A stretch of DNA of 64,000 nt, from contig JAWKSQ010000002.1 of NCBI GenBank assembly GCA_041389045.1, positions 23,898 through 87,897 on the forward strand. Direction: 5' to 3'. A program made the translations under genes and the position numbers. Under the pieces are notes generated by a model that made no database searches, was not told the origin of the DNA, and saw nothing but the letters and a program-made list of their open reading frames with translations. Origin of the DNA: Minisyncoccota bacterium. Lineage in GTDB: Bacteria; Patescibacteriota; Minisyncoccia; Phycocordibacterales; UBA918. Numbering within the stretch: position 1 is the stretch's first letter; every line of letters starts with the position of its first letter. Shown here piece by piece: positions 16,480 through 59,957 of the stretch.

Positions 16480-16721
16480 ACAAACAAAATAAATATAATT
16501 ACCCCCGCAAGTACCCAAACTTGCTTGATTTAACTATTCTAACACATTTAGAATCGCCTCCCTGTTTATAACTTTCCAGTTTTCTGCTAGACTGTCACAC
16601 ACCGCCGCGGTGACAGTATAAAAGTAAACTGCTTTACTTTTATACGTTTCGCCAAGGCAACAGTGGACGATACGAACCTAGCGAGTCAGTTCACAAAAAA
16701 TCAAATTTTTGTTTTCAAAGT

Positions 16722-16831
16722 GCCGGAGTGGTGGAATGGTATAACGGTTCGATAGTCTCCCAGACTATCTCACCTCAAAAATCGTGTGCCGCAAGGCTTG
16801 AGGGCTAAAATAGTCTGGGAGACTATTTTAG
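16722..16831 (+). pseudogene. degenerate tRNA-Leu-like copy with paired CCC/GGG-loop hairpins
   Basis: It shares GTTTTCAAAGTGC(C/T)GGAGTGGTGGAATGGTATA and TGCCGCAAGGCTTGAGGG with tRNA-Leu(CAA). It carries ATAGTCT-CCC-AGACTAT (16752-16768) and CTAAAATAGTCT-GGG-AGACTATTTTAG (16805-16831) in place of a proper anticodon stem and T arm. Confidence 0.55.
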
Positions 16832-16932
16832 AAGGTTGCCAGCAAATTTATGACAAAAAGGAATAAATTGGTGACAACCTGAACAGAATTCGTAGAATTC
16901 AAGTCCCTTATAATATAGTTCGTTTTCAAAGT

Positions 16933-17013
16933 GCTGGAGTGGTGGAATGGTATACACGTGCGACTCAAAATCGCATGCCGCAAGGCTTGAGGGTTCAAGT
17001 CCCTCCTCCAGCA
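16933..17013 (+). tRNA. tRNA-Leu(CAA)
   Basis: GCTGGAG...TGCGA CTCAAAA TCGCA, a long variable arm, GAGGG TTCAAGT CCCTC, CTCCAGC A. No CCA is encoded. Confidence 0.9.
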
Positions 17014-17042
17014 CTTTGAACGAGAACATATCCAATAATATT

Positions 17043-17945
17043 GTGAAAGAAACAAAGCCTAAAATCGTCGCCATCGTAGGGGCAACTGCTTCCGGTAAGA
17101 CTTCCCTTTCTATCGACCTGGCGAAGGAGTTTTCTGGTGAGATTATCTCCGCTGATTCTAGGCAGGTCTATAAAGAACTAGACATTGGCACAGCTAAAGT
17201 AACTCAAGAAGAAATGTCGGGCGTACCACATCACCTTATAGATGTAGTTAATGTAGACACTGTCTTCACTGCTCATGATTTCAAAACCCTAGCCAACCAA
17301 GCTATAACTGACATTCAATCTCGAAACAAACTACCGATCATAGTTGGTGGCACCTTCTTTTACCTTGACCAACTCCGTGGTACGTCGGGTGTCGCAGACG
17401 TAGAACCAAATCCAGAACTACGAGCAGAGCTAGAACAACTATCTCTAGAAGAACTACGAACCAGAGTCGCCACTTTCGACCGTACCCTACTCGAAACTTT
17501 GGAAATTGAAAACCCGCGCCGACTCATGCGAGCTATTGAGATACTTGAAGCCCTTGGTCACATCCCAAAACCCACAGTAGTGGAAAGTCCCTATGATTGG
17601 CTGATAATTGGATTAAGTGTAGAAAAAGAAGAGTTACGATCCCGCTACCGTACACGAGCCACTTCCTGGCTTGAGGTCGGTTTTTTGGACGAAATATCGA
17701 CACTTTTAAAGAAAGGCGTTAGTGAAGCCAGGTTACAAGAAATTGGTTTTGAATATACGTTAGGTCTTAGTCTTCTCAAAGGTGAAATTACTGAAACTGA
17801 ATTTATCGACAAGTTTGAACAAAAAAACTGGCAATACGCCAAACGACAACTACTTTGGCTTAAACGCGACAGTGACATAAAATGGTTCAAACCAGAACAA
17901 AGAACTGACATATTCACTACCGTAGAATCATTTTTACACAATTGA
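17043..17945 (+). CDS. miaA: tRNA dimethylallyltransferase
   Basis: P-loop GATASGKTS, DSRQVYKELDIGTAK. The upstream part of the ORF overlaps the tRNA, so the start is taken at the in-frame GTG 17043. Confidence 0.85.
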   Translation: MKETKPKIVAIVGATASGKTSLSIDLAKEFSGEIISADSRQVYKELDIGTAKVTQEEMSGVPHHLIDVVNVDTVFTAHDFKTLANQAITDIQSRNKLPIIVGGTFFYLDQLRGTSGVADVEPNPELRAELEQLSLEELRTRVATFDRTLLETLEIENPRRLMRAIEILEALGHIPKPTVVESPYDWLIIGLSVEKEELRSRYRTRATSWLEVGFLDEISTLLKKGVSEARLQEIGFEYTLGLSLLKGEITETEFIDKFEQKNWQYAKRQLLWLKRDSDIKWFKPEQRTDIFTTVESFLHN

Positions 17946-18011
17946 TTTTATTACTCTTTTCACCTACTATGTATCCACCTTGCGTAAATCAACGCTAGGC
18001 AAAATAACGAA

Positions 18012-18081
18012 GGGCCTATAGTTCAGTGGTAGAATCCGGTTTCCAAAACCGTTGACCGGGGTTCGAATCCTCGTGGGCCCG
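18012..18081 (+). tRNA. tRNA-Trp(CCA)
   Basis: GGGCCTA TA GTTC AGTGGTA GAAT CCGGT TTCCAAA ACCGT TGAC CGGGG TTCGAAT CCTCG TGGGCCC G. It is 70 nt (position 26 missing, variable loop of 4 nt). No CCA is encoded. Confidence 0.8.
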
Positions 18082-18130
18082 CTCGAGTAAAACGAAAACA
18101 CTTTGACACTGTCAAAGTGTTTTCGTGTTA

Positions 18131-18262
18131 GAAAGCAAATAGTTTTGCTTTCGTGCTCGAGCGGGAGACGGAGACATGTCGCTTTTCGACAGTCGAGTCG
18201 GGGTCGAGAACACTTAGTAGATTTAGAGCGAAGCGAATAAATATACTTAGTGATTCGTGACC
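18131..18262 (+). repeat. tRNA-linked mosaic structured repeat, unit A
   Basis: Conserved hairpin GAAAGCAAATAGTTTTGCTTTC, then CTCGAGCGGG (18156-18165), which is the reverse complement of the tRNA-Trp end CCCGCTCGAG (18077-18086). The core is GGGGTCGAGAACACTTAGTAGATTTAGAGCGAAGCGAATAAATATACTTAGTGATTCGTGACC. Confidence 0.8.
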
Positions 18263-18425
18263 GCAAAAAAGTGGACACAATGTATCCCGTTCCTGTAAGG
18301 AAAGAATCCTCGTGACCGCAAGAAAGTGGCCACAAGGTGTACTGGTCGTGTAACGACCGAAATTCTTCGTTAGTACTTAGTAGAATTAGAGCGAAGCGAA
18401 GAATTATACTTAGTAATTTGTGACC
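18263..18425 (+). repeat. mosaic repeat, unit B (beta segment plus second core)
   Basis: GTTCCTGTAAGGAAAGAATCCTCGTGACCGC, followed by GTACTTAGTAGAATTAGAGCGAAGCGAAGAATTATACTTAGTAATTTGTGACC. Confidence 0.75.
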
Positions 18426-18452
18426 ACAAAAGAAACTACACCAGATACCGGA

Positions 18453-19310
18453 CTACCTCATATCCGCATGAACATGCTTAGCCTCAATGAGTACGTAGTG
18501 GAAGCCAGCATCCCTAGCTAACTGTGCTACTTGAGCCAGTGTTATACCATTAATAGGTTGAAAATCGATCGCGGTGCCTTTGTAATGTTGACTATTTGCA
18601 CTGTGTCCCACTCCTTCGGTATAAGCAGCGGTAACTTGGAACGGTTGCTTACCATATTTCTTCAAACCTTCTTCCTGCATTTTCTTGGCCGCAGCTGCAG
18701 CGTCGACGTTTGCCTTATCTGTCCTACCTGGTCCATTGGTACCATGCCATGAGGCAACATTAAGTCCCATAGCACTTAGACTTGTCATACCGGAAGGATC
18801 GACAGGTGCACTGGGCACACCTGGCACCGGGACTACTGGCTCAGCTTTTTCATTTTTTAAATCTTCTGGTAAAATAGTCACTGTCTGTACCATACACTTC
18901 ACCTCTGACCAGGGACCCCAACCAGAAATCTCACCTACCGGCTGACCGGTATCACCACCTCCGACTAAACCTCTCATGATCGTGTCGACGATGAGCCAAG
19001 CTGACATCATGATTAAAAGACCAATCATGGCATTAGTAAACTTTGACTTAGCGGCTTGCAAAGCAGAAGTATTACCACCGGAAGTAACCAAACCAAAGCC
19101 AGCCACCACCATCAAAACAGCAAAAATCATAAAGACGATACCAAACAACCACACTATCACTTCATTCACCAGACTAGCTAAGCTACAAGCACTACAATCT
19201 GTACCGCTACAAGTCACAAAACGACTCTGCGCCATAGTAAGTGTCGGTAACAACCAAATACCTAAAAACAATGTTAGCGGGACCACCAAATGAAACATAT
19301 TTAGTATCAT
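18453..19310 (-). CDS. fusion protein: TrbC/VirB2-like (CPR T4SS-pilin-like) membrane domain plus M15-type peptidoglycan peptidase domain
   Basis: The N-terminus has a signal/TM segment, a Cys cluster (CSGTDCSACS), two TM helices and LIVDTIM, like the neighbouring 129-aa paralog. The C-terminus has GHSANSQHYKGTAIDF...HVHADM, which fits the SxHxxGxAxD...H zinc D,D-peptidase signature as I recall it. Confidence 0.65.
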   Translation of the reverse strand: MILNMFHLVVPLTLFLGIWLLPTLTMAQSRFVTCSGTDCSACSLASLVNEVIVWLFGIVFMIFAVLMVVAGFGLVTSGGNTSALQAAKSKFTNAMIGLLIMMSAWLIVDTIMRGLVGGGDTGQPVGEISGWGPWSEVKCMVQTVTILPEDLKNEKAEPVVPVPGVPSAPVDPSGMTSLSAMGLNVASWHGTNGPGRTDKANVDAAAAAKKMQEEGLKKYGKQPFQVTAAYTEGVGHSANSQHYKGTAIDFQPINGITLAQVAQLARDAGFHYVLIEAKHVHADMR

Positions 19311-19377
19311 AAAATTTATTATTACTTATATTTAAACACAGAAATGTCAAAAGGTGACCTGACTTTAAGCACAGTTA

Positions 19378-19767
19378 TTATGAGCACATTAAAGCATTCC
19401 AAACGCCATATTCAGAACCAGGAATAATTAACTTAAGAAAAGTATCAACAATCATCCAAGAAGCCAGTAAAATCATATACCCCACAATAGCGGTAGAAAT
19501 TATTTTTCTAGCCCCAGTCTTGGCTGACACATTACCGACTGCAGTACCCATCCATAGTCCAGCCACCACAATAGTCAAAACCACAAAAACACCTGACACC
19601 AGCACAAACCAATCAAAACCATTTTTTATTAGTTGTCCAAACTCGCAAAAACCACATTCATTAACCATTTTTCCGTCTACCACCTTTGGGTCACAAGGTA
19701 CAATCCCGGCCGCCAAACTAAGGGCTGGAAAAACCAATAAGACAAAGAAAAAAATTACTTTTGCCAT
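19378..19767 (-). CDS. TrbC/VirB2-like pilin-like small membrane protein
   Basis: Signal peptide, a CxxC-containing loop (CGFCEF), two TM helices and WMIVDTFLKL. Confidence 0.65.
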   Translation of the reverse strand: MAKVIFFFVLLVFPALSLAAGIVPCDPKVVDGKMVNECGFCEFGQLIKNGFDWFVLVSGVFVVLTIVVAGLWMGTAVGNVSAKTGARKIISTAIVGYMILLASWMIVDTFLKLIIPGSEYGVWNALMCS

Positions 19768-19863
19768 GTTATCCTAATAGTATCACCTCCCTGGTTTGAA
19801 AACTGCAGAGAGTGTGGTAATTTATACCTTACTTACGGCTAGTAAGTGATGAAATGAATAATT

Positions 19864-20020
19864 GCGTCGGTACGGAAGCGGAAAGCGGGGGCAAACTGTA
19901 AGACTTGCACTTTGCGCACCGGGAAGTCTTTCTGACAGCGTTGTTTCCCACCGGAAACACAGTTTAAAGTCGCTACACGCGACAAGTCAGTAAATCTTTT
20001 CGATTCCCAGTCTTCTTTGG
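19864..20020 (+). pseudogene. degenerate tRNA-Tyr-like copy
   Basis: GCGTCGGTACGGAAGCGG...GGCAAACTGTAAGACTTGC parallels the tRNA-Tyr 5' half and its GTA loop. About 90 nt of hairpin-rich insert follows (GTTTCC-CACC-GGAAAC), then a T-loop remnant TTCGATTCCC. No acceptor 3' strand is present. Confidence 0.45.
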
Positions 20021-20057
20021 TTATTCAAAAGTTGTGAAGTGATACAATTAAATAAAT

Positions 20058-20140
20058 GCGTCGGTACTCAAGCGGTCAACGAGGGCAGACTGTAAATCTG
20101 CTGGCATCAGCCTACGAAGGTTCGAATCCCTCCCGGCGCA
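20058..20140 (+). tRNA. tRNA-Tyr(GTA)
   Basis: GCGTCGG...GCAGA CTGTAAA TCTGC, a long variable arm, GGTTCGAATCC, CCGGCGC A. No CCA is encoded. Confidence 0.9.
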
Positions 20141-20172
20141 CATTAGAAGATAAGGCACCTTTAGGTGCTTTT

Positions 20173-20334
20173 TCTAATGTGCGCCGGAGCAAGCAAATAG
20201 TTTTGCTTGCTTGAGGGATTCAAAAGCGCAGCGATGCCGAAGGCGAGCGAGCTGGGGTCGAGAGTACTTAGTAGAATTAGAGCGTAGCGAATAATTATAC
20301 TTAGTAACTCGTGACCGAATCCTTTCCTCCCGGC
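20173..20334 (+). repeat. tRNA-linked mosaic structured repeat, unit C (archetype)
   Basis: TGCGCCGG (20180-87) and GAGGGATTC (20213-21) are the reverse complement of the tRNA-Tyr 3' strands. They are split by AGCAAGCAAATAGTTTTGCTTGCT. The core ends in CTCGTGACC (20316). GAATCCTTTCCTCCCGGC (20317-34) follows. Confidence 0.85.
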
Positions 20335-20481
20335 TTAGATAGAAATATTATCTTTTAATATAGCCACATTTTATAAGAAAATGTTTGCAAACACTTGACA
20401 TTTTGAATAAATAATTGATTATATCTGCAGACAGGGAGTCGAGGATCTCAATAAAACCTCATCATTGAAAAAGGTTACGAA

Positions 20482-20982
20482 ATGAAAAAAGCTCTTGGTT
20501 TTATTCTCATCATTCCGTTTCTGATCTGGGGCGGTGTTCGGATGTGGCAAGCTGAGATCTCATTCAACGTTCAAGCGGGCGGACACATGCAGAACGCAGC
20601 AAACGCTAACTCTGTCGAATTGGCCACGAAAGAGATGGAAAATGTTGTGAAATACTTCGAAGATCGGCACTTACAACCAGGTTTCACTTCCATTTTCTAC
20701 AACACTCCAGAGGAAAATGTAGGTTTCTGGATGGCTAACATGCGAGCTTCACTTGATGAACTCAAACAAGTCAAGTCAGACGCAACAAGTCTCGAGAAGA
20801 GCAATGTACTTATGAAGCTACGGGAAACACTTACGGATAAGTCTAAGAGTGGCTCGGAGATTAGCATCCCTCAAGGAATCAGCATTTACCCGCACAACTT
20901 CATCTACATGTTGGTCGGCGTCCTTTCGACCATCCTTGCCGTTGTTGGCGTCATGCTCTTTTTGGTTGGCATGGACGAATAG
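20482..20982 (+). CDS. hypothetical membrane protein (TM segments at the N- and C-termini), G+C-rich orphan
   Basis: 166-aa ORF with its own TTGACA promoter-like box near 20393. No motif recognised. Confidence 0.6.
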   Translation: MKKALGFILIIPFLIWGGVRMWQAEISFNVQAGGHMQNAANANSVELATKEMENVVKYFEDRHLQPGFTSIFYNTPEENVGFWMANMRASLDELKQVKSDATSLEKSNVLMKLRETLTDKSKSGSEISIPQGISIYPHNFIYMLVGVLSTILAVVGVMLFLVGMDE

Positions 20983-23072: not shown

Positions 23073-23128
23073 ATCTAATAATCATATCACGCAGTATGTA
23101 TTATCTATCAAGTTCAATGAGCAAAACA

Positions 23129-23164
23129 AATACCACAATTAATTACGTAATTAATTCTGGTATT
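23129..23164. promoter_or_regulatory. 36-bp palindrome, copy 1 (35/36 identical to copy 2)
   Basis: AATACCACAATTAATTACGTAATTAATTCTGGTATT. It lies just upstream of the promoter region of the minus-strand gene 22353-23072. Confidence 0.6.
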
Positions 23165-25642: not shown

Positions 25643-25651
25643 GAAATCATA

Positions 25652-25687
25652 AATACCACAATTAATTACGTAATTAATTGTGGTATT
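25652..25687. promoter_or_regulatory. 36-bp perfect palindrome, copy 2 (candidate operator/activator site)
   Basis: AATACCACAATTAATTAC|GTAATTAATTGTGGTATT. It ends 2 nt before the TTGACA at 25690. Confidence 0.6.
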
Positions 25688-35025: not shown

Positions 35026-35361
35026 ATGTCAGACAGACACATTAGAGTTGAATCCTTACTGCGCGAACTAATTGCTGCTTTTGTACAGCAGGAAGCCAAC
35101 GCTGACCCCATGATCACTATTACCAGGACTGCCTCTGCCCCTGACTATCGTCGCGTCACGGTCTTTTTCACTACCATTCCTGATGGTCGTGAAATTGACG
35201 CCTTAAACTTTCTTAAGCGCACCGGTAGTGAACTGCGAGGTTATATCAAGAAAAAAAGTAATCTAAAGATTATTCCCTTTTTAGAATTTAGTGTGGACTA
35301 TGGTGAAAAACACCGTCAACACATTGATGAAATAGCTAAAGAGATTGACGATACAAAATAG
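35026..35361 (+). CDS. rbfA: ribosome-binding factor A
   Basis: 111 aa located immediately after infB, with an RbfA-like pattern (RVESLLRELIA...ITITRTASAPDYRRVTVFF). Confidence 0.8.
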   Translation: MSDRHIRVESLLRELIAAFVQQEANADPMITITRTASAPDYRRVTVFFTTIPDGREIDALNFLKRTGSELRGYIKKKSNLKIIPFLEFSVDYGEKHRQHIDEIAKEIDDTK

Positions 35362-35425
35362 TTTGTACTAAGTGGGTTTTGTTTTAAGGGTCTAAAGATG
35401 GTAAAGTAGTGCGTACAGAAATTAA

Positions 35426-35497
35426 GTCCTGGTGGCGAAGTGGTTAACGCTCGCGGTTTGCAAAACCGCCACACGTGGGTTCGACTCACTCAGGACT
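35426..35497 (+). tRNA. tRNA-Cys(GCA), T arm non-canonical
   Basis: GTCCTGG...GCGGT TTGCAAA ACCGC...GTGGGTTCGACTCAC TCAGGAC T. The T loop appears 2 nt short. Confidence 0.6.
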
Positions 35498-35526
35498 CAC
35501 GAAATAGAAGCCTTGGCTTTTATTTC

Positions 35527-35699
35527 GTGAGTCCTGGAGCAATGCGCCTGCGCGCATTGCGGGTGGGAGTCGAACAGCGGAGTCATGTTGGGGCTTTTCA
35601 TTAAGCCTCAACAGACGAGCTGCGTCCAGCGTACTTATGAGCGTAAGCGAATTAGTAAAAGCGGGACGACTCCAAGTGACCGACTCCCATTAGGGACAG
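35527..35699 (+). repeat. tRNA-linked mosaic structured repeat, unit D (divergent core)
   Basis: GTGAGTCCTG (35527-36) is the reverse complement of the tRNA-Cys end CAGGACTCAC. The hairpin GCAATGCGC-CTG-CGCGCATTGC follows, then GGGAGTCGAAC. The core is GCGGAGTCATGTT[GGGGCTT..AAGCCTC]...GTACTTATGAGCGTAAGCGAATTAGTAAAAGCGGGACGACTCCAAGTGACC. Confidence 0.7.
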
Positions 35700-35721
35700 G
35701 GTTAGCTTATAGCCTACCCAT

Positions 35722-35804
35722 GCCCAGATGGTGTAATTGGTAGCCACGCAAGACTTAAAATTTTGTGTCACAAGGCCGTGCGGGTTCAATTCCCGCTCTG
35801 GGCA
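35722..35804 (+). tRNA. tRNA-Leu(TAA)
   Basis: GCCCAGA...CAAGA CTTAAAA TTTTG, a long variable arm, GCGGG TTCAATT CCCGC, TCTGGGC A. Confidence 0.9.
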
Positions 35805-35847
35805 CCTATAGAAGTAAACAACCACCGGACTTAGGTCCGGTGGCTTT

Positions 35848-36450
35848 GGTTCATCCTAGTCGGATGAACCATCTGCCGGCTTAAGCCGGCTGATCTGTAG
35901 TTGCTAGGAGATTAGTTTGTTAAATAGTGATGGTTGATCAACTTGATTATGATGATCTTGATGCTTCACGTACCGACGGATAATCATTTCATCTAGACCG
36001 ATCGTAGAGACGAAATAACCTCTGGCCCAGAGTGATTCTTTTTCATAGAGACCATGAGCACGTTTTATTTTCTTCTTCATCCAAGCTGAGCTTTTACCTT
36101 TAATTATTTGCATCAGGTACGAGACTGAATCCCTCGGAGAAGCACTCAGTATTAAGTGGATATGATCATCTTGGATGTTTAGTTCGATTATTTCCCAGTG
36201 TCTGTATTTAGTGATTGATTCAAAAGTACGTCTCAATTCATCTTTAACCTTTTGTGGTCCTAGTACCTTGCCTCGGTATTTTGGAGTCCAGACGAGATGG
36301 TATTTCATCTCGTAGTAACAATGTGCTAGTGTTTTAATGGTAGGTTTGCGCATACGTATTTAGTTATTACTAAAGCCAGTTGGGCGTCACCGGCTTTAGT
36401 ATATCTGTTGCCTTCAACGTACTCTCTGGCTGAAGCCGGAGGTTTTTAGA
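35848..36450 (-). mobile_element. IS200-type insertion sequence (approximate ends)
   Basis: A single Y1 transposase gene is flanked by subterminal hairpins of related sequence: GCCGGCTTAAGCCGGC (35875-35890) and GGCTGAAGCCGG (36431-36442). Further hairpins are GGTTCATCC..GGATGAACC and TACTAAAGCC..GGCTTTAGTA. The exact ends were not determined. Confidence 0.6.
35904..36353 (-). CDS. tnpA: IS200/IS605 family Y1 (HUH) transposase TnpA
   Basis: Contains YHLVWTPKYRGKVL, HUH (DHIHLIL) and the catalytic-Tyr region WARGYFVSTIG. Confidence 0.95.
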   Translation of the reverse strand: MRKPTIKTLAHCYYEMKYHLVWTPKYRGKVLGPQKVKDELRRTFESITKYRHWEIIELNIQDDHIHLILSASPRDSVSYLMQIIKGKSSAWMKKKIKRAHGLYEKESLWARGYFVSTIGLDEMIIRRYVKHQDHHNQVDQPSLFNKLIS

Positions 36451-36489
36451 TAATAAAACAACCAGCTAAAAGCTGGTTGTTTTATTTCA

Positions 36490-36619
36490 GGTGCCCAGAG
36501 CGGGAATTGAAAGGCGGAGCGATGTGAGCTTGCGAACCAGCGAGCCGGGGTCGAGAACACTTAGTTGATTTGGAGTCGAAGACGAACAAATCTACTTAGT
36601 GATTCGTGACCAATTCCCG
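36490..36619 (+). repeat. tRNA-linked mosaic structured repeat, unit E
   Basis: GGTGCCCAGAGCGGGAATTGAA (36490-36511) is the perfect 22-nt reverse complement of the tRNA-Leu(TAA) end (35785-35806). The core is GCGGAGCGATGTGAGCTTGCGAACCAGCGAGCCGGGGTCGAGAACACTTAGTTGATTTGGAGTCGAAGACGAACAAATCTACTTAGTGATTCGTGACC, followed by AATTCCCG. Confidence 0.85.
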
Positions 36620-36630
36620 TGTATTGCTAG

Positions 36631-36724
36631 CGGGAATTGAAGAGGTTAGTCAGATACCTTAGGAACACTTGGACTAAAGTATCGACAACCTGTACTGAAC
36701 TCGTAGAGTTCAATTCCCTACCAC
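36631..36724 (+). repeat. degenerate second unit E2
   Basis: CGGGAATTGAA ... GAACACTTGGACTAAAGTATCGACAACCTGTACTGAACTCGTAGAG ... TTCAATTCCCTACCAC. The E+E2 block is bracketed by the 19-nt exact direct repeat AGCTGGTTGTTTTATTTCA (36471-36489 and 36730-36748). Confidence 0.6.
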
Positions 36725-36878
36725 TGCATAGCTGGTTGTTTTATTTCATATACATAGAATGAGGGGATAAAACTCTATTGGGCTTTTTTATAAAGAACCC
36801 ATAAATCCTTGACACACCCCTAACATTCCCATAGTCTAAGTTTTGGCCTAGTTTTTTGTAACCAACTGGAGACATGTC

Positions 36879-37286
36879 ATGACACAATTAACATACTTTG
36901 TTGTAGAAGGTATATATGGCAGGTGCAAATCATTGACAATAGACCAGGTAAACAAGGAAATTTCCTTATGCAGACCTGGCCAATTGCTACTTTCCAACAA
37001 AGTGAAAGACCCAAACAATCTTGTCCGTAAAATGAAAGATGAGGAGAGGATTCTTTTACCATTCGACAATTCCATCCTGCGGGTGATCTCAAAAAATGAT
37101 TACGAGGGAATGGAAGACTGGGAATTATTTTACGGTACGTACTCAAAACAACAAAGGTTTAGGGTCCCAAATCCGAAATGGGAGCATGTAAGGGTTATCT
37201 CAGACGGTGCTTGTGACACCATAATCCTTTCGCAGAAGGAAGTCTTTCCAGGCTCTTTTACCCCAATAGCGACGACAGTTTCATGA
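36879..37286 (+). CDS. hypothetical protein
   Basis: 135 aa with GGAGA 8 nt upstream of the ATG. No motif recognised. Confidence 0.55.
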   Translation: MTQLTYFVVEGIYGRCKSLTIDQVNKEISLCRPGQLLLSNKVKDPNNLVRKMKDEERILLPFDNSILRVISKNDYEGMEDWELFYGTYSKQQRFRVPNPKWEHVRVISDGACDTIILSQKEVFPGSFTPIATTVS

Positions 37287-37395
37287 GAACTATACTCATC
37301 ACCGATAGCTCACCTCCTTGGTGGGCTGTCATTAATTTAGACATATCGAATCTGGCCTTGTTTTAACAAAATATTTATTGTACACTTCTTCGCAC

Positions 37396-37468
37396 GCGCC
37401 TTTAGCTCAGTTGGTAGAGCAGCTCCCTCTTGGAGACGGTCCAAGGTTCGAGCCTTGAAGGCGCACCA
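37396..37468 (+). tRNA. tRNA-like gene (Lys-CTT-like) with encoded CCA and non-canonical anticodon and T loops
   Basis: GCGCCTT TA GCTC AGTTGGTA GAGC A GCTCC CTCTT GGAGA CGGTC CAAGG TTCGAG CCTTG AAGGCGC A CCA. It has a 5-nt anticodon loop and a 6-nt T loop. Function is doubtful, or indel errors are present. Confidence 0.4.
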
Positions 37469-37960
37469 AGGTGAATACAAAAACACTGGTTTTTTAAACC
37501 AGTGTTTTTGTATTCAGGAAGCAAACTGCTTTGCTTTCGTACCTTGGTGCGAGTCGGAGACATATTTCTTTTCTTGCCTAGAAAAGAAATAGTCGAGACC
37601 GGGGTGAGAAAGTGTCTAAACACTTTCGCAAGACCTTTTGAGAAATTTATTTCCAAAAGGTGTATCGCTTCTGTAAGAAGAAAGTTCTTATGAGCGTAGC
37701 GAATTAGAAACTTGACCCCGCAAAAAACTGCCACCCGGCAGTTTTTTAATATGTGCGCCTTCAAGGTGTAGCTTTTCGTTAAGAAAAGCGTTACACGGCT
37801 CGAAAAGCTTTTGCGATAGATTCGACTGAAAGGAGAATATATCCAAAAGGTGTACAGTTCCTGTAAGGAAAGAGCCATTGTTTTTATGTATTGTGTAGAA
37901 ATAATTATATTAAGTAACTCGTGACCACAAAGCGTTACACGGCTCGACATAAAGAAACCC
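37469..37960 (+). repeat. composite mosaic repeat region F
   Basis: A 17-bp perfect hairpin is followed by GAAGCAAACTGCTTTGCTTTC. CCTTGGTGCG (37542-51) and GTGCGCCTTCAAGG (37753-66) are both reverse complements of the tRNA-like 3' end. The short core variant is GGGGTGAGAAAGTGTCTAAACACTTTCGCAAGACC. Beta segments AAAAGGTGTA...CTGTAAG(G/A)AA(A/G)A occur twice. The terminal sequence is TAAGTAACTCGTGACC. Confidence 0.7.
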
Positions 37961-38017
37961 TTTCTGACTCATAAACGAGAATGGTCCAGAAATAAATTTT
38001 CTGGACCAACCGATTTG

Positions 38018-38099
38018 TGCGCGGGAGAGGACTTGAACCTCCACAGATTGCTCTATTAGTTCCTAAGACTAACGCGTCTACCAATTTCGCCACCCGCGC
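38018..38099 (-). tRNA. tRNA-Leu(TAG)
   Basis: Minus strand reads GCGCGGG TG GCGA AATTGGTAG ACGC G TTAGT CTTAGGA ACTAA, a long variable arm, GGAGG TTCAAGT CCTCT, CCCGCGC A. Confidence 0.9.
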
Positions 38100-38153
38100 A
38101 GGTGGATGTGCGCAAGAGTATAGCATATTATTATAAGTTTGCGAGAGTTTACC

Positions 38154-39191
38154 TTAACTCGTTGCTCGCAACCTTGCTTTCTTAAATTGCCTTGGTCTAA
38201 GGAATTTATTGTAATATCTAGCAAACTTTTTCTTAAAGCCAGCTGGAGCTTTGTCGGTGAGCTGACACCAAGTAGAACAATAACCACCCCGCTTCTCTAT
38301 ACAGTCATCACAACCAAGAAAAAGCACGTGGGCAGATCTGATTTTTGCAGTGATAGTGCGTGTCACTTTTAGCTTCATGACATAAATGGCAGTGAGAAAT
38401 AATTTCTTCCCAATTGTCTCACCCAACCTTTCATCAAACACAAAATTCTTGCCTTTAAATTTGTTAGGCAAGCCTTCACGTTCTACTTGGTGCTTATAGT
38501 CAATCACTCCACCCTTAAGGTGCTTCACATTAGTATAGCCTTGATGTTTAAGCCAGGCACTTGCCTTCTCACAACGAATACCACCAGTACAGTAAAGGGC
38601 GATCTTTTTATTCTTATGGACAGTTAGCATCTTGGGTACCATTTGTAGTTCTTCCCGGAAAGTGTCAACGTCAGGTGTGATTGCTCCTTCAAAGTGTCCG
38701 ATCTCACTTTCGTAGGCATTTCGCATATCTATCACCACGGCCTCAGGATCTTCTAGATAAGCATTCATTTCCGAGGCCGTCAGATACTCGCCAGTATTAC
38801 TAGGATCAAAACTACTATCATCGAGTCCATCAGCCACAATTTTCTTTCTGACTTTAATCGTTAGTTTATAGAATGATGGTGCGTCCCCTTCCTCTACAGC
38901 AATCTTGTATGGTACTCCTTTTAACTCCGGTAGACTTTGCACAAAGTTATCAAACTTATCCCAGTTTTCTTTCGGAACATTCATCTGAGCATTAATTCCT
39001 TCATGAGCGACGTAGATACGCCCAAGACAATCCATCTCAGTCCAAGCCATATATAACTTTTCTCTAAAAGCATCCGGATCGGCAATCTTTACGTAGCGAT
39101 AAAAAGACAAGGTGGTACGTGGGCGAGTATCAGCCAAAGTGGCTTGTTTTTTCTCCGCCCGCGAACGCATGTCTTTTGTAATAGTTGGCAT
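38154..39191 (-). CDS. trhO: rhodanese-domain tRNA uridine(34) hydroxylase TrhO (UPF0176/YceA family)
   Basis: Contains LSFYRYVKIADP, CTGGIRCEKASAWLK and a C-terminal Cys cluster. The start is taken at MPTITKD. Confidence 0.8.
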   Translation of the reverse strand: MPTITKDMRSRAEKKQATLADTRPRTTLSFYRYVKIADPDAFREKLYMAWTEMDCLGRIYVAHEGINAQMNVPKENWDKFDNFVQSLPELKGVPYKIAVEEGDAPSFYKLTIKVRKKIVADGLDDSSFDPSNTGEYLTASEMNAYLEDPEAVVIDMRNAYESEIGHFEGAITPDVDTFREELQMVPKMLTVHKNKKIALYCTGGIRCEKASAWLKHQGYTNVKHLKGGVIDYKHQVEREGLPNKFKGKNFVFDERLGETIGKKLFLTAIYVMKLKVTRTITAKIRSAHVLFLGCDDCIEKRGGYCSTWCQLTDKAPAGFKKKFARYYNKFLRPRQFKKARLRATS

Positions 39192-40584: not shown

Positions 40585-41565
40585 ATGATCAATCAAGCAC
40601 GTCAGATCACGGCCACAGCAGTCAGAGCGGTCACACAAGAGTATGACTCGGACTGGCCACGAAAGGCGCACAGTACCTTGATGGCAATCATTGCCACTCT
40701 TTTCATCACTCTCGTAGCGATGTGGGTATTGAACATCACTGGAGCCAAGGGGGTCAACGGGTTTTTCTTCTGGGGAGGAGTTTTCTTCCTTGTCGGGAAA
40801 TCACTCCTGCCGTCCGTCATCGGTACAGTAGGATTCCTCGGGTTCTTCTTTGCATGGCTCAATGACAGCGACAAAAGCCGAGGCATACTCAAAGGACTTT
40901 CGGTTTGGGCACAGATAGTGGAAGGCATGATTTTTGTGTGGATGTCTGCCGCATTTGTGCTGTGGACATTCTCATACGAAGATGCACCACTTGGAAACTT
41001 CTGGCTACATTTGGCTGGAGCTTCGCTTTTGACCCTTGTTGCCAGAAAAATGGGCTTTGGTGGCAAGACAGGAACATTTATCTTGGGTTGCTACATCGTA
41101 GCTGTCCTAGGCATGAACCTGTGGAACGACCATATTCCAGCCAACTTGAAGGGTGACAGCGACTCAGAGTCGACGAAACCCCTTACTGCAAAGGAGCAGA
41201 AGGACCGGCTGGCTCGAGAGATCCAAGAAGCCGAGCTGGCTCGGGTACGGGCTGTAGCGAGCGAGGCAACTCGTCAGGCGACAGAAAGAGCACGGGCCGA
41301 ATCTGTGACTGACGCTAAAGCAGGAACCTGCCTGCGCCGGTACACAGAGCAAAAAAACTGCGTGACAGTCGTATTCGGTCACAACACCAAATACGACCGT
41401 GAGGGGATTGCTGGACACTGTATTGTCTCCGACCCAGTCAGTGCGCTCACTCGCACTGACCTAGGAGGCGGACAATATCGGTACGTCGGCAAAGCCGGGT
41501 TAACAGCCCAGTTCTTTGACCTACCGGTCGGTCAATCGATCGGAACCTTCAAGTGCGGGGGCTAA
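40585..41565 (+). CDS. hypothetical polytopic membrane protein with C-terminal soluble domain, G+C-rich orphan
   Basis: AGGAG RBS, about 5-6 TM helices, a charged coiled segment (KEQKDRLAREIQEAELARVRA), and a Cys-containing C-terminus. Confidence 0.65.
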   Translation: MINQARQITATAVRAVTQEYDSDWPRKAHSTLMAIIATLFITLVAMWVLNITGAKGVNGFFFWGGVFFLVGKSLLPSVIGTVGFLGFFFAWLNDSDKSRGILKGLSVWAQIVEGMIFVWMSAAFVLWTFSYEDAPLGNFWLHLAGASLLTLVARKMGFGGKTGTFILGCYIVAVLGMNLWNDHIPANLKGDSDSESTKPLTAKEQKDRLAREIQEAELARVRAVASEATRQATERARAESVTDAKAGTCLRRYTEQKNCVTVVFGHNTKYDREGIAGHCIVSDPVSALTRTDLGGGQYRYVGKAGLTAQFFDLPVGQSIGTFKCGG

Positions 41566-41649: not shown

Positions 41650-42096
41650 TTAAGGTGTGCCTGGATTAGGACCTCCTACAGGTGGAGTACCACCGGGATT
41701 AGGACCTCCTACAGGTGGAGTGCCACCGGGATTAGGACCTCCTACAGGTGGAGTGCCACCGGGATTAGGTAATCTGAATACTTCGTTACAGCCGGACGCC
41801 GATGGATTTTGAGCGCAGTCTAGCTCTTGATTAAGACCAAAAGTTCCCGCTGCGATACTTAAAATAGCAAAAGCTGAGGCCATTACGACCAAACCAATAA
41901 TACCAAAGGTGATATGTTTCTTCCCTTCTGCGCGAGCAGATTCATTATCAGCATTCATGATGTAGAGCGCACAACCATAAATAAAAACTAAAAAAGCAAT
42001 ACCCGAGAGCAGTGAGATGGTAGGAAAAAGAATCGCCGTGTTTAGTCTATCAACTAGTTTTCCAGCCTCAATCGTAGCGGATTCTTGTGGTGACAT
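41650..42096 (-). CDS. TrbC/VirB2-like pilin-like membrane protein with C-terminal PGGTPPVGGPN repeats
   Basis: Two TM helices flank NADNESARAEGKK. The tail has three 30-bp tandem repeats (41668-41765) encoding NPGGTPPVGG. Confidence 0.65.
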   Translation of the reverse strand: MSPQESATIEAGKLVDRLNTAILFPTISLLSGIAFLVFIYGCALYIMNADNESARAEGKKHITFGIIGLVVMASAFAILSIAAGTFGLNQELDCAQNPSASGCNEVFRLPNPGGTPPVGGPNPGGTPPVGGPNPGGTPPVGGPNPGTP

Positions 42097-55953: not shown

Positions 55954-56086
55954 TTCTTATATAGTGTCAAGCACACAAAGACGCATGTGTCAATATCGTG
56001 ACATATGTATAAGTTACCTGTATGATTACAGAGCTTATTAATTACGGTACTCAGGGGTGGGTACGAAGGTTGTTTAATACGAATTT

Positions 56087-56524
56087 ATGGAACAAATAAA
56101 ATCAGACGTTGAATCCTTTGCACGTATTCGTGTAGTTGGTGTTGGTGGTTCTGGAAAGAACGCCGTTAACCACATGGTATCCCGTAAAGTTAAGGGAGTG
56201 GAGTTTATTGCTATCAATAGTGACTCACAAGACCTACATCACTCATTTGCTAAAAAGAAAATTCACATTGGTAAGAATCTAACTCGTGGTCTTGGTGCCG
56301 GTGGTAATCCTGACATGGGTCGTCGTGCTGCTGAAGAGACGCGTGAAGAAATTGCTAACGCGATCAAGGGCTCTGACAGATCTTCATCACTGGTGGTATG
56401 GGTGGTGGCACTGGTACCGGATCAGCTCCGGTTGTCGCCAAGATTGCTCGAGGAAAGTGGAGCACTGACTGCTGGTGTCGTGACTAAGCCTTTCCTATTT
56501 GAAGGACAGAACGTATGCGACTAG
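56087..56524 (+). CDS. ftsZ: FtsZ, N-terminal fragment (contains an internal compensated frameshift pair)
   Basis: [10 protein letters not shown] is present. The tubulin signature [23 protein letters not shown] is readable only in the alternative frame between about 56375 and 56452. Confidence 0.85.
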
Positions 56525-57330
56525 CTCTCCAAGGTATCGAAGAGCTAAAAAAAGAAGTGGACGCCCTCATCACCATCCCTAACGACCGACTCCTAGCTAT
56601 CGTGGATCGCGAAACTACTGTTCGCAACGCCTTTGAACAATGTGACAATGTCCTCAAGCAAGCGGTTGAGGGTATTTCCGACCTCATCACTATGCCTGGT
56701 ATTATCAACGTCGACTTCGCTGACATTCGTAGCGTGATGGAAAATGCCGGCTCTGCTCTCATGGGTGTCGGTATTTCGTCTGGCGAAAAGCGGGCTGAAG
56801 AAGCTGCTCAAGCGGCTATCAATTCCCCACTCCTTGAAGTATCCATCACTGGAGCCAAGGGTGTCCTCTTCGCTATCGCTGGCGGAGACGACCTAGCGAT
56901 GCTCGAAATCCAAGACGCTGCCCGAGTTATTACTGAGTCTATCGATCCTCACGCTAAGGTGATCTTCGGAGCCATCAAGGACGACAAACTTAAGAAAAAT
57001 GAAATCAAGGTAACTGTCATCGCTACTGGCTTCCCAGAGGAACACGCTAATCCGCAAAACTCTATCTCGAGAAGAGCTCCTGCAGCTATCACTCGTCCAG
57101 AACCAGAAGATGAGGTAGTGGCGCCAGAGTCTAAGGGTAGAATCTTCAATTCCCTTTCCATGCCAAAGAAGACTGAACAGGAACCAACTCCAGAACCAGT
57201 TGTAAACAACTCTGTACGCCATAACGACATGCCTAAGCGTGATCCAAAGCCAGTTGATCCGATTGATGAAGATGATGATGGAGACTGGGGTGCGGTTCCA
57301 GCATTTTTGCGTAGGTCAAAGCTTAAATAA
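56515..57330 (+). CDS. ftsZ: FtsZ, C-terminal fragment
   Basis: [28 protein letters not shown]... with a C-terminal DWGAVPAFLRR peptide. It joins the upstream fragment at the A-run near 56508. Confidence 0.9.
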   Translation: MRLALQGIEELKKEVDALITIPNDRLLAIVDRETTVRNAFEQCDNVLKQAVEGISDLITMPGIINVDFADIRSVMENAGSALMGVGISSGEKRAEEAAQAAINSPLLEVSITGAKGVLFAIAGGDDLAMLEIQDAARVITESIDPHAKVIFGAIKDDKLKKNEIKVTVIATGFPEEHANPQNSISRRAPAAITRPEPEDEVVAPESKGRIFNSLSMPKKTEQEPTPEPVVNNSVRHNDMPKRDPKPVDPIDEDDDGDWGAVPAFLRRSKLK

Positions 57331-57340
57331 GCTTTGACTA

Positions 57341-57492
57341 GCAAAAATGCGAACCGCAAAGCGGAGCGATGTGAGTCGCCTCTTCCCAGGACGACGAACC
57401 AGCGAGCTGGGGTCGAGAACACTTAGTAGATTTCGCACGTAGTGCAGAAATATACTTAGTGATTCGTGACCGGTTCCTACTTTTGCGTTTGC
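57341..57492 (+). repeat. mosaic structured repeat, unit H1 (no tRNA nearby)
   Basis: The outer arms GCAAAAATGCGAACCG and CGGTTCCTACTTTTGCGTTTGC are complementary. The core is GCGGAGCGATGTGA[GTCG..CGAC]GAACCAGCGAGCTGGGGTCGAGAACACTTAGTAGATTTCGCACGTAGTGCAGAAATATACTTAGTGATTCGTGACC. Confidence 0.85.
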
Positions 57493-57518
57493 ATAATTAA
57501 AATAATTTAGCTTCCAAA

Positions 57519-57651
57519 AAAGCGGTGCCGACGGGCGTAGCGATGTGAACCGCCCCATCTTAGGGCGGTGAACCAGCGAGCCGAGTCGACAAGTACTTAG
57601 TTTTTTATGAACGTAGAGATATAAAAAGCTTAGTAACTTGTGACCGGTTCC
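57519..57651 (+). repeat. mosaic structured repeat, unit H2
   Basis: GCGTAGCGATGTGA[ACCGCCC-CATCTTA-GGGCGGT]GAACCAGCGAGCCGAGTCGACAAGTACTTAGTTTTTTATGAACGTAGAGATATAAAAAGCTTAGTAACTTGTGACCGGTTCC. Confidence 0.8.
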
Positions 57652-57682
57652 AGCCTGCTAAATAAATCTATTTAAATTCCAG

Positions 57683-58761: not shown

Positions 58762-59316
58762 GTACAACGTAGAGTTTGGTCTGCACGCTTTGCTCATAGC
58801 CTGAGCGTTGTATGGAGATACTTCACCACCGTGCAAACCTATAACTAGCATCTCATACTCATAACTAGTGTCAACGAAAGTCTAAAATCCTTATTTTTCA
58901 ACCTTCTGTGTATAAACCTGTGTAAAAGTACTGGAAAAGTATGTATAAAACCCTGGTCATAACTTATGTAAAAGTCTGTCGATAGTCACTTGACGTCCTT
59001 TAGTAGAAAAGTCACCAAATTTAGCTTAGTTGCATAACTTTAGCCATAAAAACTTACTACACAATTATAGTATAACAAGCACTTAGTAGACCTAGAATTT
59101 CCTGACATTTCTGGTACTATGTGGCGGACTAAATAGCAGATTTAAAAATTGCTACTTTAGTAAAAAGTAAGTACAGGAAAGGAGTGGTTTTTGGCATGAG
59201 GATGGCACGGAGCCGAGAATATCTCCCAGACCAAGTTGGAGGCAGACGAGTATAAGTTGGAAGTGGTTTTTGGCAAGAGTATTGCACTCAACCAAAAATG
59301 TCTCCCAGACATTTTT

Positions 59317-59388: not shown

Positions 59389-59426
59389 CGTACAAAAACG
59401 AGCATCTCGAAAGAGGTGCCGTTTTT
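59385..59426 (+). repeat. 42-bp direct repeat, left copy (tRNA-Glu end plus terminator)
   Basis: CACGCGTACAAAAACGAGCATCTCGAAAGAGGTGCCGTTTTT is identical to 61011-61052. Confidence 0.9.
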
Positions 59427-59430
59427 GTTG

Positions 59431-59601: not shown

Positions 59602-59648
59602 ATTGCCTGGTAGCAAATTTCACAACCCAACAAACGAAAGGGGGGCTA

Positions 59649-59954: not shown

Positions 59955-59957
59955 CCA

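Follow-up and report, generated by a model that had tools for sequence, protein, structure and literature searches.

A conserved folded element at the 3' ends of tRNA genes and ftsZ in Patescibacteria

The tRNA-Tyr gene in a stretch of 64,000 nucleotides (nt) of DNA from a Minisyncoccota bacterium (GenBank contig JAWKSQ010000002.1, positions 23,898 to 87,897; the whole stretch is hereafter called the window) is followed by a structured element in which pieces of the tRNA 3' end recur, in antisense and in sense orientation, around a conserved core. The locus raises the question of what such an element is, and whether it acts as RNA or as DNA. An earlier reading of the letters alone (the sequence-only reading) had called it an unrecognised family and offered three hypotheses: a structured noncoding RNA co-transcribed with tRNAs, a mobile element that either targets tRNAs or resembles the bacterial interspersed mosaic elements (BIME) and repetitive extragenic palindromes (REP), and a primer-binding site of a retroelement. 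The present analysis found that the element is real, widespread and structurally conserved and, judged by Rfam 15 and the literature open to search, undescribed. It suggests an undescribed handling of transcript 3' ends, or a copying of DNA there.

Anatomy, conservation and spread of the unit

The unit behind tRNA-Tyr, taken as the archetype (window 20058-20334), consists of the following parts.

20058-20140, + strand: tRNA-Tyr (GTA), without encoded CCA (ARAGORN; Rfam tRNA model, 49 bits; sequence)
20123-20140, + strand: X, the 3' segment of the tRNA from T-loop C56 to A73
20141-20179, + strand: T1, a terminator-like hairpin, GGCACC-TTTA-GGTGC followed by a T run (sequence, fold)
20180-20187, + strand: antisense X part 1, TGCGCCGG (k-mer match)
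20188-20211, + strand: HP, a conserved 24-nt hairpin at the acceptor/T boundary (sequence, fold)
20213-20221, + strand: antisense X part 2, GAGGGATTC (k-mer match, fold)
20225-20253, + strand: P2 arm of the core (fold; its helices P2a and P2b covary)
20256-20316, + strand: P3 arm of the core (fold, repeat search, alignment)
20316-20334, + strand: X', a decayed sense copy of the tRNA 3' end (sequence, k-mer)

All of the sequence features quoted earlier for this locus were found in place, and the claim that antisense copies of the acceptor-3' and T-stem-3' strands are split by a hairpin was borne out by exact matches of two 9-mers. The trailer arms of T1, CATTAGAA and TTCTAATG, pair with each other according to sequence and fold. 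Antisense X part 1 matches the reverse complement of A73 and the acceptor 3' strand exactly, and is the perfect-antisense version and not the 5' strand of the tRNA itself. Part 2 is the reverse complement of the T-stem 3' strand and some of the T loop, and forms the 5' strand of the closing helix P1. The loop of HP, which separates the two parts, is usually AACUGCUU in relatives. The P2 arm is built of helix P2a (AGC/GCU), an internal loop GNA/GA, helix P2b and a variable hairpin, which ends in a GAA triloop at tRNA-Tyr. The core ends in GTGACC at 20316, where X' begins at the position of T-loop C56 and supplies the 3' strand of P1.

In the core, P2 and P3 meet P1, which is variable and comes from the flanks, in a three-way junction. 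The long stem P3 has the near-invariant base GGUCGAGA / CUCGUGACC with a conserved G.U pair, and also holds two ACUUAGU boxes and a variable apex; U.U and A.G mismatches in it are a reading of the alignment. Covariation statistics were computed on 150 aligned copies, in which 97% of the core cells were paired, 24 of the 25 core pairs showed compensatory changes on both sides and the G.U pair was near-invariant. The covariation score was 0.512, as compared with 0.03-0.06 when the partners were slid, and 0 of 500 shuffles reached the observed value. These results confirmed the hairpin covariation claimed for the copies of the window. About 30 invariant nucleotides were common to class-level groups. 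Single units of the window showed fold z-scores of -4.2 to -6.1 against shuffles. P1 was also specific to its flanks, as its duplex energy was -12.9 kcal/mol with own flanks and -8.6 kcal/mol with mismatched flanks (p=8e-11).

Upstream of the core, a CUGC tetraloop was present in 43 of 145 units and was by far the commonest loop at that place; ACTGCT occurred 25 times against 3.6 expected, and its complement GCAG was not enriched. Pairing of the HP loop with the core GCA/GGA triplet was considered and rejected, with no covariation in the copies compared by eye. A hammerhead-like junction was also rejected for its unsuited strand order, and a kink-turn reading of the P2 internal loop was not established.

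The core pattern CTTAGT-N15-45-CTTAGTRAYTYGTGACC was scanned against 185,579 species genomes and matched at least 118 genome stretches, which dispelled the worry that the family might be a local duplication artefact. Among the matches listed, all but one were labelled as Patescibacteria/candidate phyla radiation (CPR) or unclassified, the labels comprising Kaiser-, Yonath-, Nomura- and Campbellbacteria, Paceibacteria, Minisyncoccia and 'Saccharibacteria' metagenome-assembled genomes (MAGs), and spanning several class-level groups. The exception, locus L008 (JBLHQB010000003.1), is labelled 'Patiriisocius sp.', a flavobacterium, while its content is CPR-like; the contig is probably mis-binned or mislabelled. 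It carries four units together with tRNA-Trp and a MiaA-like gene, as in CPR loci. A covariance model (R1), built from an alignment of 76 sequences (A1), found 156 copies in 100 of the 118 listed foreign loci, which are referred to below by their L numbers.

Searches of databases agreed with the novelty of the family. Rfam 15, whose families include tRNA-like RNAs, T-box, HEARO/omega-RNA, ROOL, GOLLD, drum and the self-cleaving ribozymes, matched only the nine tRNAs when applied at gathering threshold to the whole window, and at E<=10 over 16500-20500 and 35300-38200 no existing family matched a core; weak miRNA-type matches on terminator hairpins were due to chance. The family can thus still be called unrecognised within the regions scanned and the literature searched, in which no description of the element was found; publications on TIGR-Tas and on a patescibacterial epibiont had no bearing on it. 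The same core pattern gave 0 matches in 2.9 million viral contigs, and blastn against plasmids and phage records detected no copies. Near-identical strains were likewise not found: exact-protein look-ups and a metagenome scan with the tRNA-Tyr end plus trailer gave no match, and a scan with the L093/L109 flank only a chance match.

Linkage to the preceding gene and the two competing helices

The upstream neighbours were counted for the best 150 R1 hits. A same-strand tRNA was found in 90 of the 150, another unit in tandem in 19, an open reading frame (ORF) in 11 (ftsZ in 7 of them) and the edge of the locus in 9, while 21 were unclear. Linkage to tRNAs and co-orientation with the upstream gene, both claimed earlier for the window alone, therefore extend to the family, and the copies placed beside a tRNA or ftsZ were co-oriented with that gene in 100% of cases. 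Among the pattern matches listed, 80 of the 122 hits had a same-strand tRNA ending 43-383 nt 5' of the long stem, and these tRNAs comprised 33 anticodon types. The subtype of the unit was constant for each tRNA type across genomes: tRNA-Trp had a short P1 (CGGGAG...GACCGC), and tRNA-Gly(TCC) and tRNA-Phe a long one. Downstream, no consistent gene was found, and some units face convergent genes. The genes near units were ordinary housekeeping genes; an enrichment test for a partner protein in the 118 listed loci brought out only housekeeping synteny. GC skew is uniformly negative in the window, which by its usual reading suggests that the + strand units lie on the leading-strand template, yet a minus-strand module accompanies the minus-strand tRNA-Gln.

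The units behind ftsZ are orthologous in L080, L109, L093, L006, L056, L018/L092, L104 and L029, whose FtsZ proteins are 67-86% identical to that of the window (86% in L029, a Saccharibacteria-labelled MAG, and 85% in L080, a Kaiserbacteria MAG). The unit lies directly 3' of ftsZ in nine loci, L006 carrying two tandem copies like the window; the more distant genome L031 has ftsZ without a unit. Set against the intact FtsZ of L080, the ftsZ of the window itself (56057-57330) falls into two frames (56057-56509 in frame 2; 56365-57327 in frame 1), an apparent frameshift or sequencing error.

The general order of the unit is X, T1, antisense X, core and X'. In the long-P1 subtype, X starts at T-loop C56 and reaches the discriminator base, in many cases extending into the trailer. 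In the short-P1 subtype it comprises the trailer and the bases that end the tRNA, and at ftsZ the codons for A-V-P-A-F-L. Both copies follow the gene in front of them. X' scored at least 10 against the unit's own tRNA in 36% of loci and against other tRNAs in 0.3%, and antisense X matched its own tRNA in 45% of loci as compared with 3% for others. The long-P1 sense copy invariably begins at C56 (GTGAC, then CGAATCC), and perfect 18-nt X' copies were present in eight of the compared loci; at ftsZ, X' repeats the final codons as far as the stop, either intact or decayed. Direct repeats of 67 and 48 nt in L002 and L102 include the terminator, and are thus whole-unit tandem repeats.

Where the acceptor stem has a G.U or mismatch site, antisense X complemented the 3' strand perfectly in 8 loci and agreed with the tRNA 5' strand in 1. 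The tRNA-Ala units of L045 and L116 carry A3, not G3. At ftsZ, antisense X follows synonymous third-position differences between genomes (13/13 for L080, 13/13 for L093 and 10/10 for L092). Judging from these sequence comparisons, antisense X is a true antisense copy of the upstream end, and the three strands X, antisense X and X' co-evolve. Two simpler readings were rejected. A degenerate tandem tRNA copy, in which antisense X would be the tRNA 5' strands, does not agree with the 8 loci against 1, and the ftsZ units obey the same rule. An intron model, in which X' would be a true 3' exon, was rejected as X' is often decayed (20316-20334; L003, L020).

Antisense X can pair with either sense copy. 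With X it would form a helix, P0, that surrounds T1 and continues without a break into the trailer arms; with X' it would form P1, which closes the core. Complementarity was higher to X than to X' in 62 of 73 loci, with means of 14.2 and 8.6 (p=5e-11). For the tRNA-Tyr read-through RNA, the P0 state with unfolded tRNA was predicted at -126.4 kcal/mol, as compared with -109.1 kcal/mol for the folded tRNA plus P1. P0 and P1 are mutually exclusive in this model. P1, the outer pairing proposed earlier between the antisense arm and the downstream copy, is flank-specific, but the antisense arm pairs better with the upstream tRNA. Likewise, the proposed geometry of a tRNA minihelix holds for the long-P1 subtype, in whose copies HP was read by eye at the acceptor/T boundary, but not for the tRNA-Trp, Lys-like and ftsZ copies, which use other segments. 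The spread over the phylum, the orthology of the ftsZ units and the codon origin of their arms, the competing tRNA pairing and a second core type (type 2, described below) had been missed by the sequence-only reading.

Folded RNA or folded DNA

Our tentative preference is for a cis-encoded RNA module on read-through tRNA transcripts and ftsZ mRNAs, in which P0 and P1 would exchange and the junction would be the point at which a factor sets the outcome. We infer the folded strand to be RNA, its supply behind tRNAs to come by read-through, and with these the entire functional output proposed here. In Paceibacteria-type Patescibacteria, the module would form part of the tRNA 3' trailer or, at ftsZ, of the 3' untranslated region. 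Behind tRNAs it would be made only when polymerase reads through T1, and at ftsZ it would be part of every mRNA. The antisense arm adjoins the descending arm of the terminator hairpin, and its pairing with the trailer could serve as the toehold from which invasion starts. The arm would then zip into X to form the long P0 and unfold the acceptor and T arms, or at ftsZ bury the last codons and the stop codon. X', the last part to be transcribed, would reclaim the antisense arm for P1, close the P2/P3 junction and free X. The conserved core would presumably bind a protein, ligand or nuclease that sets or reads this balance, and would thereby tie to that factor whether read-through tRNA and ftsZ transcripts are destroyed, processed or released.

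The first of the earlier hypotheses, a structured noncoding RNA co-transcribed with tRNAs, is thus the best-supported one in view of the covariation and co-orientation. The orientation, which tracks the upstream gene even at the minus-strand tRNA-Gln, was counted toward RNA. Deep conservation and the retained orthologous copies point to RNA as well, and the place of HP at the acceptor/T boundary is an RNA-like three-way design in the long-P1 copies read. Counted toward RNA, too, were the relations among the three strands given above, the upstream sequence (perhaps with the promoter) that pseudo-tRNA versions share with their tRNA, the lack of enriched mobile-element genes near the listed loci, the absence of recombinase, reverse transcriptase and RNA-guided nuclease genes from the window ORFs tested, and the absence of copies from the viral contigs, phage records and plasmids searched.

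Several observations weigh against an RNA module. A strong terminator usually lies 5' of the unit, and no promoter-like site was found between the terminators and the scanned cores, so that transcription would need terminator read-through and RNA levels of the unit may be low. T1 was described from sequence and folds since a simple terminator scanner proved too strict for most + strand T1 hairpins. The predicted ground state of the read-through tRNA is a disrupted tRNA, which makes the module sensible only in a clean-up or regulatory role. Among 111 apex loops, C-GNA-G triloops accounted for 35, GCGAAGC included, and none was a GNRA loop; GCGAAGC is a famously stable DNA minihairpin. G.U pairs made up about 2.4% of stem cells, only 1.8 times the A.C value (1.3%). 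These loop and pair statistics look more like those of DNA hairpins, and the perfect Watson-Crick antisense copies fit templated DNA synthesis equally well as selection.

Comparison of related genomes also brought out changes at the DNA level that count against the RNA module. L093 and L109 are 96-100% identical through ftsZ and downstream, with only about 75% identity in the block from X to the start of X'; the changes within this block all keep the structure. Between L029 and L080 (90-95% identical), the alignment breaks off precisely where the units lie, and the shared native flank returns after the last X'. Tandem arrays and direct repeats of 48-67 nt are present, and in L029 and the window 1-1.6 kb of unrelated cargo lies between X' and a further remnant of the tRNA-Glu end. 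The divergent islands are no proof of site-specific mobility, since the conserved core boxes could act as recombination anchors.

Such features would suit the main rival, which we consider somewhat unlikely: a repeat or mini-cassette that folds as single-stranded DNA in a strand-specific manner, like REPINs, attC or CTX attP, and that would insert into tRNA genes and ftsZ at their 3' ends or duplicate these ends. It would bring a replacement end (X plus T1) and leave the original X' beside the native flank, and would spread by tandem duplication and strain exchange, the core being a cis site for a hypothetical trans enzyme. Direct repeats of the target 3' end do flank the unit, in long-P1 units always from C56, with the native flank resuming after the last X'. 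They also bracket inserted DNA, with native flank after the distal repeat (59548-63, 60990-61052 and relatives). The ftsZ-end copies 3' of the core differ mostly synonymously (L056, L104), and phage insertions replace the end of icd similarly. The islands, arrays, cargo islets, dominant triloops, low G.U and perfect antisense copies given above all agree with it, pseudo-tRNAs hold modules inside their T loop, and an IS200-type Y1 transposase gene is present in the window. However, neither recombinase nor transposase genes nor other mobile-element genes were enriched in the neighbour clusters of the 118 listed loci; a Y1 homologue occurred in 1 of the 118, suggesting that the Y1 gene is unlinked to units. 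Recombinase, integrase, reverse transcriptase and RNA-guided nuclease were all absent from the 20 of 29 large window ORFs tested. Viral contigs, phage records and plasmids held no copies, as described above. The invariant nucleotides across class-level groups and the orthologous positions long kept are further difficulties, as REP and attC sequences are, to our knowledge, not conserved to such depth. The 33 anticodon types plus ftsZ would demand 34 target specificities, simple insertion gives no explanation for HP and core being parted by a target-derived segment, and the window units lie on the suggested leading-strand template with an orientation that tracks the gene. The second hypothesis of the sequence-only reading, a BIME/REP-like or tRNA-targeting element, thus gains from the arrays, the rapid replacement and the DNA-like loops, and loses by the lack of a transposase or integrase partner in these searches and by the deep orthologous persistence.

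It is improbable that the unit gives a stable, trans-acting, tRNA-like small RNA which hitch-hikes on tRNA transcription units like the plant dicistronic tRNA-snoRNA genes. RNase P would cut the 5' end of antisense X, RNase Z and the CCA-adding enzyme would finish X', and the product would be a decoy or protein sponge. P1 mimics an acceptor/T minihelix in the long-P1 subtype, with HP at the acceptor/T boundary in the copies read, X' includes the discriminator base, the trailer and CCA where it is gene-encoded, and the conservation of the core is independent of the locus; tRNA-snoRNA genes, from whose transcripts RNase Z releases the product, provide a precedent. This is opposed by the tRNA-Trp, Lys-like and ftsZ subtypes, which lack minihelix geometry, by the frequent decay of X' (e.g. 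20316-20334) and by the tRNA-Ala units of L045 and L116, which have A3-U70 in place of the G3.U70 identity pair. The trailer match of the antisense arm and the codon tracking at ftsZ would be left without reason.

Highly improbable is a guide RNA for an unlinked RNA-guided protein, in the manner of omega-RNA, bridge RNA or TIGR, with the core as scaffold and antisense X and/or X' as guide, serving homing or repression of the tRNA gene. In its favour, segments of 16-22 nt that differ from locus to locus and match the DNA next to them lie on both sides of a conserved scaffold, X' borders on the native flank in the way of an omega-RNA guide, and RNA-guided systems exist in CPR genomes. Nevertheless, no TnpB, IscB, IS110 or Tas-like gene was found in the 20 large window ORFs or enriched in the 118 listed loci, and the Rfam scans gave no HEARO or omega-RNA-like match. 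The guide-like arm of long-P1 units is broken by a hairpin, and the sense and antisense arms overlap fully and pair mutually. The third earlier hypothesis, a primer-binding site for a retroelement priming from the tRNA 3' end, is essentially excluded: the complementarity of 17-22 nt to the tRNA 3' end does reach the T loop, but in the copies read it runs into the genomic trailer (ATG at tRNA-Tyr, not TGG) and not CCA, the same design is used with ftsZ codons, and no reverse transcriptase was found in the neighbour clusters or the window ORFs tested.

If the preferred RNA module is right, the units would be among the most abundant structured RNA classes of a phylum that holds a large share of bacterial diversity, and would act on the 3' end of the preceding gene, not on the downstream gene, a layout without described precedent. 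They would offer a testable lead on the control of tRNA output and FtsZ in ultra-small, regulator-poor bacteria. The full form of this idea is a new phylum-wide class of 3'-located RNA switches, with a junction sensor behind about half of the tRNA genes seen and behind ftsZ, an antisense toehold and a decoy copy, giving an RNA-only coupling of tRNA supply and division to one signal; this we regard as unlikely. If the units are DNA, they would be a new target-copying miniature element that colonises tRNA T loops without a linked recombinase. Either way, they account for much 'empty' intergenic DNA, apparent tRNA pseudogenes and hypervariable islands of CPR genomes, and should be masked or annotated in MAG analyses.

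Further units of the window and known systems

Core copies in the window were located by repeat search and by R1 with filters off; bit scores below are those of R1.

16620-16690, + strand: truncated type-1 fragment (repeat search), upstream of the real tRNA-Leu(CAA)
18083-18425, + strand: tRNA-Trp unit; T1, HP 18130-18153, antisense X CTCGAGCGGG 18156-18165, full core 18153-18274 (111 bits), linker modules, then a second copy with the long stem only, 18367-18423 (49 bits)
20211-20328, + strand: core of the tRNA-Tyr unit (110 bits)
35499-35699, + strand: tRNA-Cys unit; 16-nt antisense of tRNA end plus trailer 35521-35536, divergent core 35562-35680 (34 bits)
36490-36728, + strand: tRNA-Leu(TAA) unit; perfect 22-nt antisense X 36490-36511, type-1 core 36499-36623 (105 bits), type-2 module 36614-36725
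37469-37930, + strand: unit of the Lys-like tRNA; T1, HP 37516-37539, antisense X 37541-37551, long-variant core with extra domains (R1 match 37539-37641, 22 bits), second antisense X 37753-37766, remnant of the long-stem 3' strand 37898-37926
57292-57657, + strand: ftsZ double unit; X (last ftsZ codons) 57292-57317, stop codon 57328-30 in a hairpin loop, antisense X 57336-57357, core 1 57346-57483 (108 bits), X' 57471-57489, core 2 57520-57657 (74 bits) with its own X'
59390-59568, + strand: tRNA-Glu unit of type 2; T1, hairpin, antisense X GAGAATCGAA 59471-59480, type-2 core, perfect 16-nt X' 59548-59563
59453-59564, 36614-36725 and 16803-16914, + strand: type-2 modules at tRNA-Glu, behind the tRNA-Leu(TAA) unit and in the pseudo-tRNA-Leu, respectively
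16722-16914, + strand: pseudo-tRNA-Leu 5' of the real tRNA-Leu(CAA); a type-2 module lies within its T loop
2790-2990, - strand: pseudo-tRNA-Gln 5' of the real tRNA-Gln; a type-2 module lies within its T loop

The window thus holds five strong, one partial and two divergent copies of the type-1 core of about 120 nt, all on the + strand. On the reverse strand R1 scored at most 22 bits, as compared with about 110 bits on the + strand, indicating that the structure is strand-specific. In the earlier count of at least six clear cores plus four or five divergent or partial ones, a distinct second type had been lumped in. The same architecture had been claimed for the tRNA-Trp, tRNA-Cys, tRNA-Leu(TAA), Lys-like and tRNA-Glu loci, but the copies at tRNA-Glu, at 36614-36725 and at 16803-16914 have the different core of type 2. 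Exact k-mer matches to the adjacent tRNA were the 22-mer antisense for tRNA-Leu(TAA), a 14-mer (37753-37766) for the odd Lys-like tRNA, an antisense 10-mer and a sense 16-mer for tRNA-Glu, a sense 11-mer for tRNA-Trp and a 9-mer for tRNA-Cys, whose 16-nt match to tRNA 3' end and trailer came from a separate search. Orthologues of the tRNA-Trp unit were found in L044, L046, L060, L088 and L008.

The type-2 core has the order stem, apical hairpin, GUACUGAAC and a small GUA hairpin; the T-loop copy begins with the 3' strand of this hairpin. The type-2 core covaries as well, both sides having changed in 20 of its 23 pairs (19 sequences). Long variants join type 1 and type 2 (window 37539-37930; L010, L085, L101). 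The module in the pseudo-tRNA-Gln is the sole minus-strand module found in the window and matches the gene orientation. The tRNA-like pseudogenes of Gln, Leu(CAA) and Tyr (19862-20020, + strand) lie about 200 nt 5' of the matching real tRNA; those of Gln and Leu have extra hairpins in the anticodon arm, and the Tyr copy was read by eye only. The pseudo-tRNA versions duplicate the sequence immediately 5' of the real tRNA (repeats D6, D13 and D16), and the duplicated sequence may include the promoter. A palindromic motif, AGTCTCCCAGACT / AGTCTGGGAGACT, is found at 16754-16766, 16812-16824, 2621-2633 and 2881-2893 (4 matches against 0.23 expected), and also at 59221-31 and 59300-10, in both orientations, near pseudo-tRNAs and 5' of tRNA-Glu; it forms the pre-core hairpin in some foreign units, e.g. 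L069.

Between tRNA-Leu(TAA) and its unit lies, exactly, an IS200-type insertion (35807-36489) with hairpins at both ends and a Y1 transposase ORF on the - strand (35904-36353; Pfam Y1_Tnp, 6.9e-33). Its first 19 nt, AGCTGGTTGTTTTATTTCA, recur at 36729-36747 just after the unit, and a sub-threshold Rfam match to STnc370 was obtained at 36421-36488. The 3' end of tRNA-Glu is a small variable islet: in the window, the tRNA-Glu unit and a remnant of the tRNA-Glu end with an exact 42-nt terminator copy (60990-61052; 61011-61052) flank about 1.4 kb (59592-60990) with two ORFs (59592-59954, + strand; 60238-60837, - strand), both without a Pfam match, and a different cargo gene, SPFH/Band 7, occupies the same place in L029. 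Just 5' of tRNA-Glu, 59170-59310 holds two 62-nt direct repeats, 76% identical and 79 nt apart, each ending in GTCTCCCAGAC. The Lys-like tRNA ('tRNA-???', 37396-37468) is the ortholog of tRNA-Lys(CTT) in a conserved Cys / Leu-TAA / Lys-CTT / Leu-TAG cluster. It encodes CCA, and its anticodon loop is short by AA relative to L082 and L075, leaving the 5-nt loop CUCUU; possible readings are a pseudogene, an unusual tRNA or an error in the assembly. Two T4SS-pilin ORFs on the - strand (18453-19310 and 19378-19767) lie between the tRNA-Trp and tRNA-Tyr units, the former also with a Peptidase_M15 / Hedgehog-like C-terminal part. Elsewhere, a 37-nt near-perfect palindromic repeat, AAATACCACAATTAATTACGTAATTAATTCTGGTATT, occurs at 23128-23164 and 25651-25687, 2.5 kb apart, and three 33-nt tandem repeats (41660-41769, 95% identical) adjoin an ORF without a Pfam match (40585-41565).

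When compared with known systems, the units resemble REP/BIME elements and the REPIN-RAYT (REP-associated tyrosine transposase) system in being multi-copy extragenic hairpins at the 3' ends of transcription units with vertical persistence. REPs are 20-40 nt long and species-specific, lie singly or as inverted pairs in either orientation between genes, and take no sequence from their neighbours, in contrast to the present core of about 120 nt, which forms a three-way junction, is conserved across class-level groups, is co-oriented with the gene and has neighbour-derived arms. As for RAYT, the Y1 gene of the window (35904-36353) lies beside a unit, yet its homologue was found in only one of the 118 listed loci. 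Rickettsia palindromic elements (RPE), which are ancient palindromic repeats at orthologous sites within RNA genes and at protein-gene ends, are alike in these respects, but they lack target-derived arms, a tRNA preference and a conserved three-way junction.

Integron attC and CTX attP sites share strand-specific folds, two inverted arms round a variable centre, arrays of units and mimicry of a duplex target. The arms of attC carry the same short core sites in every cassette, and the integrase gene adjoins the array. The arms of the present units are instead locus-specific copies of the neighbour, the conserved part is the centre, R''/R' core sites (RYYYAAC / GTTRRRY) are absent, and no intI or recombinase gene was found in the neighbour clusters or the tested window ORFs. 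Islands at tRNA ends, and e14 or phage 21 in icd, also show the target 3' end in direct repeat, supply a functional new end from the element side and leave the displaced end beside the native flank; the icd copies we take to differ mostly by synonymous changes. The units differ in being 150-250 bp without an integrase and in serving 33 anticodon types plus ftsZ, each with an internal antisense copy; no known integrative element has matching internal antisense copies for each target. IS200/IS605 omega-RNA is comparable in that X' adjoins the native flank as a guide does, but TnpB and IscB were neither found in the window ORFs tested nor enriched in the loci.

Among RNAs, riboswitches and T-boxes share a conserved multi-helix junction, a P1 strand that is also used by an alternative helix, many copies, tandem arrangement and, for the T-box, a link to tRNA. 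The present element has no evident ligand, specifier or T-box sequence and no Rfam match. The tRNA-snoRNA genes, mascRNA, ROOL and GOLLD are structured noncoding RNAs beside tRNA genes, some of which use tRNA promoters or processing enzymes, but none has an antisense copy of the neighbouring tRNA; ROOL and GOLLD are also far larger and were absent from the Rfam scan results. As to tRNA-like structures and tmRNA, only one subtype of the element has minihelix geometry, the T-loop copy in the units is fully base-paired, and neither ARAGORN nor the Rfam tRNA model reports anything in the window beyond the nine true tRNAs. The element also differs from riboswitches and T-boxes in its place, as it lies 3' of the gene with which it pairs, and its 'expression platform' is the 3' end of the upstream RNA itself.

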